Assembly (NCBI GenBank): GCA_029259155.1
Contig: JAPDJI010000018.1
Coordinates: 1-48,865 of the forward strand
Length of the DNA stretch: 48,865 nt
From: Candidatus Methanomethylicia archaeon
Lineage (GTDB): Archaea > Thermoproteota > Methanomethylicia > Nezhaarchaeales > B40-G2
Reading direction: 5' to 3'
Shown: positions 31,163-35,311 of the stretch, one piece after another
Position numbering within the stretch: position 1 is the stretch's first letter
Layout of the letters: every line of letters begins with the position of its first letter
Notes under the pieces: generated by a model
What the model was told of the DNA's origin: nothing
Seen by the model: only the letters and a program-made list of their open reading frames with translations
The model's database searches: none
Position numbers and translations under genes: made by a program

Positions 31163-31762
31163 TTGGCTAGAGGAGCTCTATATCGTGTACCTTTTAGACG
31201 TAGGAGGATGGGGCTAACTAACTATAAGCTTAGGAGAGGCCTACTCCTTTCGAGGAAACCTCTACTTGTTTTACGTAAGACTAACATGCATATCATAGCC
31301 CAGCTCGTTAAGCCTAGGCCACAAGGGGACGAAGTACTAGCCTCAGCTACCAGTATGGAACTTAGGAGAGGCTATGGCTGGAAAGCTTCCTGCAAGAACA
31401 GTTCAGCTGCATACCTGACAGGCTACCTCTTAGGGGTTAAGGCTTCTAAGCTTGGGATAAAAGAAGCGGTACTTAACCTAGGTCTCCACAGACCCGTTAA
31501 GGGATCCACCCTGTTCGCCGCCTTAAAAGGAGCTTTAGACGCAGGTCTAGAAATTCCTCACAGCGAAGAGATCTTGCCAAGCGAGGATAGAATTAGAGGA
31601 AAGCATGTAGAGGAGTATGCTACTAGGCTCGCCAGCGAAGACCCTGAACTATACGCTAAGAGGTTTTCGGGGTATTTAGCAAGAGGCCTTAAGCCGGAGG
31701 AGCTAACTAAACACTTCGAGAAAGTTTTAGCTAAGATAAAGGAAGCCACTAAAACTTTATAG
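31163..31762 (+). CDS. rpl18: 50S ribosomal protein uL18
   Basis: [38 protein letters not shown]. Confidence 0.96.
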
Positions 31763-31809
31763 GCTACCCACGATCTCTAGCCTCAGCTCATCGAGGGAGG
31801 TGATGGTAG

Positions 31810-32461
31810 ACGGCGCACAGCATAGAGTACTGGGTGCCTAAGACTGCAATAGGTAGGATGGTTAAGGAAGGCCTAATAACCAGCATAGACCAAGTCTTCG
31901 CTATGAATCAAACCATTAAGGAGCCTGAGATAGTTGACATATTGATACCAGGGCTAAGCCACGAGATCATCGACGTCAGCCTCGTCCAGAAACAGACGGA
32001 TACCGCCTAATCGCCTTAGGCGGCCGTAAGCTGGGGAGCTCTCCAGGTTTAAGGTAGTGGTAGCTATAGGTAACGGAGATGGCTACATAGGTTTAGGCAG
32101 CGCTAAGGCCAAGCAGATGCGCAACGCCATCGATAAAGCCATAATTGATGCGAAGCTAAACATAATACCTGTTAGGAGAGCTTGTGGAAGCTGGGAGTGT
32201 AGGTGTAATGAACCTCATAGCGTACCATTTAAGGTCACGGGAAAAGCTGGAAGCGTAGAGATAACTCTCATCCCTGCTCCTCGTGGAACAGGACTTGTAG
32301 CCGGAGACGTAGGTAAAATAGTGCTACGCTTAGCTGGCATAAAGGATGTATGGACTAAGACCAAGGGAGAGACGAGGACCGCGCCTAACTTTGCTAAAGC
32401 CATTTACGAAGCCCTCAAACAAACCTATAAAGTCAAAACAGTCTCTAAGTGGGCTGCATAG
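31810..32461 (+). CDS. rps5: 30S ribosomal protein uS5, join(31810..32001,32030..32461), 207 aa, ACG start, contains an intron
   Basis: Exon 1 ...[15 protein letters not shown]...EPEIVD...VQKQTD; exon 2 [15 protein letters not shown]...CGSWEC; frames join after removing 28 nt. Confidence 0.93.
32002..32029 (+). other. 28-nt BHB intron in rps5 mRNA
   Basis: CAG-ACGG-AT^A-CCGCCTAA-tcgcc-TTAGGCGG-CCGT-AA^G-CTG: perfect bulge-helix-bulge. Confidence 0.92.
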
Positions 32462-32463
32462 CC

Positions 32464-32934
32464 ATGGCTAAGCTCCTAGCAGCCATCAGGCTCAGAGGCA
32501 TAGTAGGAGTACCAGAAGATATAGAAGTCACTCTAAAGCTCCTAAGGTTAAACAAGAAGAACCATGCTACTATAGTGGAGGATACCCCGACCTATAGAGG
32601 GATGCTCCAGAAAGCTTCAGGCTACTTGACGTATGGTGAAATAGACCTAGAAACCTTAGCCATGTTGCTTAGGAGAAGAGGAAGACTAAGAGGAAATAAA
32701 CCTGTAACCGACGAGTACGCTAAGAAGTTAGGGCTTAACAGTGTGGAGGAGTTAGCCTCAGCCTTGATGGAGGCGAAGCTTAAGCTTAAAGACCTGCCAA
32801 ACTTTAAACCAGTCTTCAGGCTACACCCTCCAAGCAAAGGCTTCAAGCAAAGCCTCAAAAAACCTTATGGAGCTGGTGGAGAGCTAGGATATAGAGGAGA
32901 AACCATAAATGAGTTGCTTAAAAGGATGATGTGA
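32464..32934 (+). CDS. rpl30: 50S ribosomal protein uL30
   Basis: AIRLRG, TLKLLRL, FRLHPPSKGF, GELGYRGETINELLKRM. Confidence 0.96.
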   Translation: MAKLLAAIRLRGIVGVPEDIEVTLKLLRLNKKNHATIVEDTPTYRGMLQKASGYLTYGEIDLETLAMLLRRRGRLRGNKPVTDEYAKKLGLNSVEELASALMEAKLKLKDLPNFKPVFRLHPPSKGFKQSLKKPYGAGGELGYRGETINELLKRMM

Positions 32935-32937
32935 CGC

Positions 32938-35177
32938 TTATTTAGGCATGAAGTCCTCTGGCTTAGGTATCTCCTTGGGAAGACCTTTACGTTCTCTAAC
33001 CTTCATTATCGTCGGTACGAGCAAGCTCTCAGGTATAGGCTCCCATCCTCTTACTTCTAAAGCCCAGAATGCTCTACCGGCCGTGGCACTCCTTATCTCG
33101 TTCGCTAGATCAAAGGTTTCAGCTACGGGTATCTCTCCTTTAACAGACATTAGCATCCCAGCGGACTCCAAGTTCAAGATCTTGCCTCTCCTCGTAACTA
33201 TTACTCTTGTAAGCCCTGAAATGTAGTCTGGAGGGCATTTGGCCTCTATCTTCATTATGGGCTCAAGTAACGTAGGCTTAGCCGAGAGGAAGCCGCACAT
33301 GATAGCGTCTTTGAGAGCTGGCATCATCTGGGCTGGACCACGGTGTGCTGGGTCTTCATGGATTTGAGCGTCTACCAGTACTACTTTAACCCCTCTAACC
33401 GGCTCGTGACATAATGGCCCCTCAGCCATGGTCCAGTGGAAGCCGGAGATTAGCGTGTCCTTAACTTCTCTCAGGTGCTGTAAGCCCTTCGTTACGTCAA
33501 CGAAGATGTTGAGGTGTTCATCAATCGACCAGATGTTACGCGCTTCATCGGCATCCCAGCCAGCTTTTTCACGTAGTATCTTAGCTCTAACCCTCCAGTC
33601 CTGTCCATCGTAGATCTCGCTGCGCTCGAGCAGTTCCATGGTGGCTGAGTCTAGAGGCTCTACCTTAATGTAGACCCTATTGTGTTTATTAGGGCTCTTA
33701 CCTTCAAAGGGACCAGCTGACTTCCTGATAGTTTCCCTGTAAACCACTATGGGCGGCGAGGTTACGACCTCTAAGCCACCTGTACGCTGTTGAAGATCCC
33801 ATAGTGCTATTTCGAGATGTAATTGACCCATGCCAGCGATCAGATACTCCCCGGTCTCCTCGTTAATCTTCACGTAGAGCGTAGGATCCTCTATGGCCAT
33901 CCTTCTAAGAGCATCCACCAGCTTAGGCAGGTCGCTTGTATGTTTAGGCTCTATGGCCATCGTAACGACAGGCTCGCTTATGTAGCGCAGCCTCTCAAAG
34001 GGCACCATAACCCCTTTCAGTACCTTATCAACTATGGTCTCACCTGCCCTCGCCCTATCCAAGCCCAGCATAGCCACTATGTTGCCTGCCACGACAGAGT
34101 CGCAGACCTCTCTATAAGGACCCATGTAGAGACCTACCTGCTGTATCTTACCGTCATCACGGGCCATAACCAAGTATACATCCTCACCGGTGTATGCCGT
34201 ACCGGAAAACACTCTTCCCGTAGCTACGAGACCTGCATGCGGATCAGAGATTACCTTGCTGACACAGATGACCGTTGGGCCTTTGTCGTCGCAGTTTAAC
34301 ATGGCCTTACCTACTTCGCTTTCCAGATCACCCTTCCACAACTTAGGTATACGGTACTTCTGAGCCTCGAGAGGGTTCGGAACATGCTCAACTATCATGT
34401 CCAGTATAGCTTCGTAAAGCGGGGCCTCCTTGGCCAGCTCCTCTACGTAGCCTTTTTCATAAGCGTCAACTATATTGGAGAACTTGAACCCTTTCCTCTG
34501 CGCTATGGGTACTGTAAGCCCCCATTTATGTAAAGCTGAGCCGAAGGCTACTTGGCCCTTGGCGAAGTCAACCTTCCATACCTTTTTGAACTCAGGCTCA
34601 GCGTAAAGTTCTATGAGCGAGTTGAAGTCCTTCACAATCTCTATGAAGCGCTGCTGAATTTCGTTAGGGGATAATTTAAGTTCCTTGATTAGTCTGTCCA
34701 CCTTATTGATGAATAGAAGGGGCCTGATACGCTCCTCTAAGCCTTGGCGCAGTACGGTCTCGGTCTGGGTCATAACTCCCTCGACTGCATCGCAAACCAC
34801 GAGCCCACCATCCATTACCCTTAGGGAGCGGGTCACGTGGCCTGTAAAGTCGACGTGGCCAGGCGTATCTACCAGGTTTATCACGTAGGGTTTACCTTGC
34901 CACTCGTGGTAGAGAGAGACGTTGGCCGCCTTAACGGTCATCTGTCTTAACTGAGCGCAGGGAGGGAAGAGCCCTCCATGCTCTGCTCTATCTCTACATA
35001 ATCTAAGGCCAACGCCTTCCCCGCTACCTTAGGCGAAAGCATGCCGGCAGCCATCAACAGGCTGTCGCTGGTAGTGGTCTTACCATGGTCTACGTGAGCT
35101 AACGTGCCTATGTTACGTACCTTCTCCCTATCCTTCATCAGCCTTAGTACTTCCTCGGTCTGCTTGAACTTCACCAT
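32938..35177 (-). CDS. fusA: Translation elongation factor EF-2, join(complement 34983..35177, 32938..34950), 735 aa, contains an intron
   Basis: Exon 1 AHVDHGKTT...ALDYVEIEQ; exon 2 [10 protein letters not shown]...DTPGHVDF...NKVD...[11 protein letters not shown] (diphthamide His). Confidence 0.95.
34951..34982 (-). other. 32-nt BHB intron in EF-2 mRNA
   Basis: Minus strand TA-GAGC-AG^A-GCAtGGAGGG-ctctt-CCCTCCcTGC-GCTC-AG^T-TA. Confidence 0.9.
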
Positions 35178-35311
35178 CCCATCTCACCCTCCTTAACATT
35201 GTAGCTAAAGAGCTAGCTTGATGGTCTTATTTAAACCTAGCCCTTGCATCCCCAAGAGAGAGCGATCGAAAGCTTTTCTAGGCCTAACTCTAACTGGTTG
35301 GTGGGTAAGCT

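Follow-up and report, generated by a model that had tools for sequence, protein, structure and literature searches.

Positions 1 to 48,865 of contig JAPDJI010000018.1 (assembly GCA_029259155.1, Candidatus Methanomethylicia archaeon; this 48,865-nucleotide stretch is referred to as the window in the following) hold a gene for ribosomal protein uS5 (rpsE) whose reading frame is interrupted by 28 nucleotides (nt) at 32002–32029 of the plus strand, between an Asp codon that ends at 32001 and an Ala codon that starts at 32030. Judged from this locus and its counterparts in relatives, the insert is very probably a genuine archaeal intron of the bulge-helix-bulge (BHB) type, spliced out of the transcript of the sole uS5 gene of its genome. 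It shifts the frame, and its third codon, read on from exon 1, is TAA (32008–32010). A sequence-only reading of the window had proposed just such a frameshifting insert within the motif VQKQTD-AGE, and the exon translations bear this out, with exon 1 ending in ...VSLVQKQTD and exon 2 opening with AGELSRFK.

Protein profiles fix the junction to the residue. NF003125, an NCBIfam model of uS5, matches exon 1 with its positions 7–66 and exon 2 with 67–207, and a second such model, TIGR01020, runs from 5–65 on exon 1 to 66–204 on exon 2 without a gap at the junction. The match to the S5 N-terminal domain (PF00333, positions 17–65) starts exactly at 32030 and is followed by that to the S5 C-terminal domain (PF03719). 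The archaeal splicing endonuclease EndA cleaves 3′ of the second base in each bulge, and the in-frame Asp-Ala joint derived earlier from this rule is the one across which both profiles are contiguous (66/67 and 65/66, respectively). The cut rule and the intron-less orthologs lead to identical uS5 boundaries, at which excision is predicted to restore a contiguous product. The locus lies in a ribosomal protein operon, and ARAGORN found no tRNA in the window. Elsewhere in the genome (1.55 Mb in 47 contigs, 94% complete), we detected no further copy: the S5 N-terminal domain and exon 2 each have a single match, which settles the question of a second rps5 gene for the assembled part.

The insert can pair with itself, and the exon bases that flank it (31993–32001 and 32030–32033) are able to pair with its 3′ end. 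From the 5′ exon, the outer helix, the central helix, and a bulge lead into the inner hairpin; behind it, the other strand of the central helix, the second bulge, and the outer helix lead on to the 3′ exon. Introns of archaeal pre-tRNAs are built in the same way. The minimum free energy (MFE) fold of 31985–32042 (−22 kcal/mol) contains the central helix, the two 3-nt bulges, and the inner stem of 8 base pairs (bp), so that the canonical geometry claimed from the letters alone stands. Excerpts of PMC6379350 define the BHB by precisely these features, two 3-nt bulges and a 4-bp helix, and name it as the EndA substrate.

Several points weigh against this interpretation. Taken as a single sequence, the fold has a modest z of −2.07, with 6 of 200 shuffles folding equally well. 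For the outer helix, the MFE fold prefers UCCAG/CUGGG, at the price of a 6-nt bulge, over the pairing of CAG and CUG; this helix has just 3 bp, shows an A-G mismatch in two (G002 and G003) of the 17 genomes that carry the insert, and is the weakest element of the uS5 motif. EndA cleavage and exon ligation at uS5 are deduced from DNA, and the cut rule is supported indirectly, because the in-frame junctions match the boundaries in intron-less orthologs. Strictly speaking, a second uS5 copy could sit in the unassembled part of a 94%-complete, 47-contig genome. Nor is the gene model fully clean, since exon 1 has a non-canonical start codon: the uS5 frame holds no ATG, GTG, or TTG until GTG 31834, directly 3′ of a conserved Trp codon, and further upstream an in-frame TAG (31807–31809) is followed by ACG 31810, 6 nt 3′ of the Shine-Dalgarno-like GGAGGTGA (31796–31803). 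This ‘TAG ACG’ arrangement recurs in G001, and the corresponding position in G002, G003, and family f3 is occupied by TTG or ATG; uS5 could start at ACG 31810 or have a shortened N-terminus. As the fold statistic is weak alone, the case beyond chance rests on the comparison of relatives.

At least 17 genomes carry an insert at the same site of uS5, 19–34 nt long and flanked in every carrier by the Asp and Ala codons seen in the window. Of the 15 genomes surveyed from the window's order (Nezhaarchaeales-like; families f1, f2, and f3), 14 are carriers, and three more belong to two other families of the phylum. Within the order, the carriers belong to f1 and f3 and their inserts measure 22–34 nt, while uS5 of G004 (f2) is uninterrupted. 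None of 46 genomes from the rest of the class has the insert (open frames of at least 201 amino acids; 47 were matched, G048 being fragmentary). Our phylum sample comprised 401 genomes, with carriers sought in the best 150 of 399 matches; new carriers among the matches listed were G357 (f55, 24 nt) as well as G332 and G312 (f49, 23 and 19 nt), and the comparators G317, G352, and G402 have an uninterrupted uS5. A collection of named genomes provided 50 loci, 3 of them with the insert, 32 contiguous, one without a match to exon 1, and 14 that have a protein-level insertion, in frame and 42–45 nt long, farther upstream. The sequences point to an old uS5 intron that has been vertically kept in most of the order, its stem sequence drifting and its geometry retained; such retention would be expected, because imprecise loss of the intron would be lethal. 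In a quick tree of the initiation factor aIF5B, the order holds together (SH-aLRT 97) and f2 groups with f1 (90, on a long branch). For G004, this leaves either a loss of the intron in that genome or a gain after it had branched off.

All of the 17 inserts possess the 4-bp central helix, two bulges of 3 nt, and an inner stem, each of which also contains an in-frame stop codon (read from the sequence by eye). In all 14 inserts of the order, the inner stem is contiguous over 5–11 bp, and in 15 of the 17 the outer helix has 3 bp. A covarying BHB in the rps5 genes of relatives, which the earlier reading had named as a check, is indeed found at this site. In an alignment of the 17 sequences, 94.3% of the pair cells are paired, compared to 18–45% when the partners are slid by 1–3 columns, and 11 of 18 base pairs are altered on both sides, as are 32 cells. 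The covariation score amounts to 0.315 versus 0.116 after shuffling. On four of five measures, none of 500 shuffles reached the observed value, and 13 of 500 did so on the fifth; the aligned sequences being related, this count is no probability, and the slid-partner control, which preserves relatedness, gives an equally clear result. The central helix, with 100% of its cells paired, has one variable pair, the most telling of all. In G005 and G008, the Thr codon of the exon reads ACA in place of ACG and the intron CTGT in place of CCGT, that is, a synonymous exon site covaries with the intron. As for the Gln codon by which the exon contributes to the outer helix, 17 of 17 carriers have CAG, compared to 5 of 13 non-carriers inspected.

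These data bear directly on the notion that the gene is simply broken—a pseudogene, or an artefact of assembly or sequencing—and that no functional uS5 arises from the locus. An interrupted frame in an incomplete metagenome assembly would fit such a view, but the locus is the only one for a ribosomal protein that is universal, the protein sequence of both exons is conserved across 17 genomes, and the insert evolves by compensatory change and not by decay. Moreover, Logan DNA contigs from four runs (four studies) carry the insert with 0 gaps and include no intron-less joint; of these, X1, X4, and X5 cover 31700–32500 and X6 covers 31700–32127, and the assembly itself may derive from one or more of these four. 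We consider a broken gene next to inconceivable, and the earlier judgement that pseudogenisation is implausible and its concern about an assembly artefact have both been answered in favor of an intact, intron-bearing gene.

The genome encodes candidates for the enzymes that excision and ligation would require. Two genes, on C1 and C6, belong to the EndA family (PF01974; loci L082 1234–1785, plus strand, and L083 1474–2103, minus strand). The product of the first (183 amino acids) has its best matches in the PDB chains 3p1z_B, 3ajv_B, and 2zyz_B (E 1e-45 to 1e-53), and that of the second (209 amino acids) gives weaker matches that include 3p1z_A, 3ajv_A, and 2zyz_A as well as eukaryotic Sen54; we take these chains to be catalytic and structural EndA subunits. 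The pair fits the two-subunit (alpha-beta) enzyme of Crenarchaeota. RtcB is encoded as well, on C17 (PF01139, 593 bits), and ARAGORN reports introns in 14 of the 42 tRNA genes of this genome, some of them doubtful. We propose that a heteromeric EndA of the alpha-beta type would cut the uS5 RNA 3′ of the second base in each bulge and that RtcB would ligate the exons to the in-frame Asp-Ala joint of a full-length uS5 of about 200 residues, setting free the 28-nt intron, probably as a circle. On an unspliced mRNA, translation would stop at the TAA of the intron and yield an N-terminal fragment only, so that the cell would need splicing to make uS5. Nothing in the data points to a function of the intron itself.

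Alternatively, the insert might stay in the mRNA, with ribosomes bypassing or hopping over the hairpin, or with two polypeptides assembling in the ribosome. A strong hairpin behind an in-frame stop codon does resemble known bypass signals, and the coupling of translation to transcription in archaea generally leaves little time for splicing. What is conserved in 17 of 17 inserts, however, is the 4-bp helix with the two 3-nt bulges that EndA needs, not a matched pair of take-off and landing codons; the length of the insert varies (19–34 nt); and the same break geometry occurs in five other genes of the genome, including the known spliced site of Cbf5. Two polypeptides would have to arise from an exon 2 that lacks an initial start codon—the first candidate, GTG 32057, lies within the conserved domain—and from a break that interrupts Pfam's S5 N-terminal domain, its position 16 lying on one side and 17 on the other. 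Both variants appear very improbable to us. We are similarly doubtful, and put the chance as slim indeed, that the insert is removed from the RNA by something other than EndA and RtcB, be it another nuclease/ligase pair or self-cleavage. The role of EndA is admittedly read from sequence, but the geometry is that of a textbook EndA substrate (excerpts of PMC6379350), and both EndA subunits and RtcB are encoded. A self-splicing intron of group I or group II was rejected, as the core of such introns takes hundreds of nt compared to 28 nt here and 19–34 nt in relatives, and Rfam has no family at E ≤ 1 in 31700–35300.

We also scanned all 47 contigs for further introns in coding sequences. The motif alone is not enriched in this genome (1009 matches versus 1037 in the reversed sequence), and the earliest scan, with 1040 candidates, was far too loose. 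A filter on the hairpin only gave three candidates, all true, yet passed over aEF-2, Cbf5, and the AmmeMemoRadiSam gene, and one on the full motif in the MFE fold with flanks retained 2 candidates, uS5 not being among them; aEF-2 escaped the intermediate filters because they demanded a stop codon near upstream of exon 2. The final scan combined the 3/4/3 geometry with a hairpin-forming insert of 15–70 nt, 30 or more open codons in both exons, the joining of two open frames by the same cut rule, and a constrained fold within 1 kcal/mol of the unconstrained one. It kept 22 of 7436 candidates, of which seven had an energy per nucleotide (E/nt) of −0.43 or below; controls with wrong geometry (bulges of 5, 4, and 2 nt) reached this threshold 0, 0, and 1 times, respectively. 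Six of the seven top matches are genes split at points that are contiguous in profiles or orthologs. The genome thus appears to hold at least six BHB introns in coding sequences, namely in uS5, aEF-2, aIF5B, Cbf5, and two radical-SAM genes (Table 1), a census that is a lower bound given its restriction to canonical geometry, 15–70 nt, and 30 or more open codons per side. The seventh top match (C12 5262–5331) looks non-coding in translation. Likewise by eye, we dismissed C6 82973–82995 (a binding protein followed by a permease, hence a gene boundary), C9 31881–31932 (two different genes), C1 62178–62253 and C1 117788–117865 (gene boundary or non-coding), C3 88681–88712 (adjoining the start of TBP; gene boundary or non-coding), and the lower-ranked rows, again gene boundaries or non-coding.

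As a separate observation, two strongly folding segments of 164–191 nt with BHB-like ends (C26 14066–14256 and C12 5541–5704) lie between apparently non-coding frames. These may be sites of rRNA or other RNA processing rather than mRNA introns.

Table 1 Features of the uS5 locus and of the five other intron-bearing genes; positions without a contig handle refer to the window.
Feature	Position	Strand	Remarks
uS5 exon 1	31810–32001	+	Open frame; last codon GAT 31999–32001; NF003125 7–66
uS5 intron (predicted), 28 nt, phase 0	32002–32029	+	Predicted EndA cuts 3′ of 32001 and 32029
uS5 exon 2, including stop codon 32459–32461	32030–32461	+	PF00333, PF03719; NF003125 67–207
BHB motif of uS5	31993–32033	+	Outer, central, and inner helices, two bulges, loop; supported by covariation
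Outer helix	CAG 31993–31995 / CTG 32031–32033	+	3 bp
Central 4-bp helix	ACGG 31996–31999 / CCGT 32024–32027	+	
Bulges, 3 nt each	ATA 32000–32002; AAG 32028–32030	+	
Inner 8-bp stem	32003–32010 / 32016–32023	+	Loop 32011–32015 (5 nt)
aEF-2 exon 1	34983–35177	−	ATG 35177–35175; ends ...LDYVEIEQ; TIGR00490 4–64
aEF-2 BHB intron (predicted), 32 nt	34951–34982	−	About 3 kb from the uS5 intron; TIGR00490 contiguous 64/65
aEF-2 exon 2, including stop codon	32938–34950	−	TIGR00490 66–719 from residue 2
aIF5B (IF-2 GTPase) intron (predicted), 29 nt	C2 13183–13211 (L087)	−	NF003078 contiguous 44/45; ...REVGAM / TQHIGAS
Cbf5 intron (predicted), 23 nt	C2 28850–28872 (L085)	−	NF003280 66/Asp67/68
Radical-SAM gene intron (predicted), 23 nt, phase 1 in Ile codon	C3 38302–38324 (L088)	+	Ortholog comparison
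AmmeMemoRadiSam-type radical-SAM gene intron (predicted), 30 nt	C7 47511–47540 (L164)	+	TIGR04337 contiguous 58/59

The aEF-2 intron, which shares the window with that of uS5 and had escaped the earlier reading, has the central helix GAGC/GCTC, the bulges AGA and AGT, a 10-bp inner stem with one mismatch, and a 2-bp outer helix. For this gene, we compared the window with eight of 14 loci, as nucleotide strings and as translations in the frame of exon 1. Inserts at the same site but with differing stems occur in G000 (32 nt), G001 (32 nt), G002 (29 nt), and G003 (29 nt), and aEF-2 is uninterrupted in four f3 genomes. In G004 (L152), a BHB-like insert of 25 nt, parsed by eye, lies at another site of the gene, behind the P-loop HGKTTT. 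The aIF5B site is occupied by inserts of 22–33 nt with varied stems in 23 of 30 loci of the class. The carriers are the order's 15 genomes without exception, plus G041 from f9 and seven from f5; the remaining 7 are five in f7 and f8 plus G033 (f4) and G034 (f5).

In Cbf5, the intron separates the first base of the catalytic Asp's codon from the second (phase 1). According to excerpts of PMC2738675 (methods), the crenarchaeal cbf5 intron occupies the same position, and since our scan recovers this published site, it serves as a positive control. Cbf5 inserts of 19–29 nt are present in 26 of 30 loci of the class (the order, f4, f7, and f8) and absent from G041 and three f5 genomes, a distribution by which the cbf5 intron gains hosts beyond those known so far. 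The radical-SAM gene on C3 represents the opposite extreme: 28 of 30 orthologous loci are uninterrupted, including those of the three closest relatives, the only carriers being G000 and G004 (L124; 26 nt, same site, parsed by eye). This suggests a recent gain or repeated loss. Together, these patterns indicate that the introns of the genome differ in age, with gain and/or loss evident.

All six introns fall at profile positions 44–67, about the first 70 codons of host genes of 200–740 codons, although the scan had no bias toward gene starts beyond the at least 30 open codons demanded on each side. Four of the six hosts (uS5, aEF-2, aIF5B, and Cbf5) function in translation or ribosome biogenesis. 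The 5′ position bias could possibly reflect 3′-biased loss of introns via reverse-transcribed mRNA, a route of loss that excerpts of PMC2738675 raise for cbf5. A functional link with translation is also possible.

A pre-mRNA intron in cbf5 of Crenarchaeota was reportedly described by Watanabe in 2002. As far as excerpts of a later study go (Yokobori 2009, PMC2738675), the crenarchaeal intron resembles that of uS5 in being a short BHB intron within a coding sequence, restricted to certain lineages, with gains and losses, and thought to be cut by a hetero-oligomeric EndA; the same excerpts describe most cbf5 motifs as unconventional BHBs, whereas the uS5 motif is canonical. Both introns break an essential residue or domain, and their removal is therefore required. 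The uS5 intron differs, however, in residing in a ribosomal protein gene of a ribosomal protein operon, in being of phase 0, and in its host lineage—Nezhaarchaeales-like genomes and two further families. Another point of comparison is Haloferax volcanii, whose EndA is homodimeric. There, the HVO_1309 mRNA contains a BHB intron in its 5′ untranslated region (UTR) and likewise acts as an EndA substrate (Schwarz 2020, PMC7714728, in excerpts). That host is euryarchaeal, and the intron sits in an untranslated leader, in contrast to the interrupted reading frame of uS5. Archaeal tRNA and rRNA introns share the motif (excerpts of PMC6379350) and the enzymes, and the genome studied here has intron-bearing tRNAs of its own. 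Unlike these, the host RNA of the uS5 intron is translated, such that its removal must restore the frame and compete with ribosomes. In eukaryotes, HAC1 and XBP1 mRNAs undergo unconventional splicing by Ire1 together with a tRNA ligase or RtcB. This system is similar in that a short, frame-changing mRNA intron is excised by proteins alone, independently of the spliceosome, and that a ligase of tRNA splicing joins the exons; it is dissimilar in its endonuclease (Ire1), its stem-loop signals, and its being a regulated stress switch.

Published accounts are in line with the earlier statement, which had named cbf5 as the main gene with an established mRNA intron in archaea. Excerpts of PMC7714728 (2020) name cbf5 as the only mRNA BHB intron reported before the HVO_1309 5′ UTR case, and cbf5 alone is named as a coding-sequence BHB intron in excerpts of PMC2738675 (2009) and in the reference list of PMC12397907, a structural paper of 2025. 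Circular RNAs within open reading frames of Sulfolobus are not supported as introns in the excerpted text of PMC3326292. In the open-access full-text literature, we found no report of a BHB intron in uS5, aEF-2, or aIF5B—an earlier mention elsewhere is possible—and nothing that ties Nezhaarchaeota or Methanomethylicia to introns; excerpts of PMC12700198, which describes cultured relatives of the lineage, do not mention introns. Apparently, then, the set of protein-gene introns in this Nezhaarchaeales-like lineage is undescribed so far.

Since 2002, the accepted list of archaeal coding-sequence introns has consisted essentially of cbf5, and the candidates presented here would add a ribosomal protein, two translation GTPases, and two radical-SAM genes as new hosts. 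Their distributions suggest differing ages, ranging from uS5 (14 of 15 genomes in the order plus two families) over aIF5B and Cbf5 (23 and 26 of 30 class loci, respectively) to one radical-SAM gene (2 of 30), and this variety makes the gain and loss of archaeal introns directly amenable to study. The locus also prompts one to ask in what way splicing manages to compete with translation that is coupled. There is a practical side as well: uS5, aEF-2, and aIF5B are standard marker genes that gene callers will truncate (open frames of 143 versus about 205 amino acids for uS5), and truncated markers may bias marker-gene trees of these lineages, along with their annotation and the estimates of their completeness.

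Finally, Nezhaarchaeales and their relatives might be the first archaea known with an entire set of protein-gene introns, preferentially in translation genes and within the first ~70 codons, and this set might act as a checkpoint or feedback device. We regard this as an unlikely, though attractive, extension of our findings. If true, the synthesis of ribosomes and translation factors in these archaea would depend on EndA and RtcB, thereby coupling RNA-processing capacity with translation capacity, and the introns would constitute an archaeal counterpart of regulated splicing of the HAC1/XBP1 type rather than neutral passengers.

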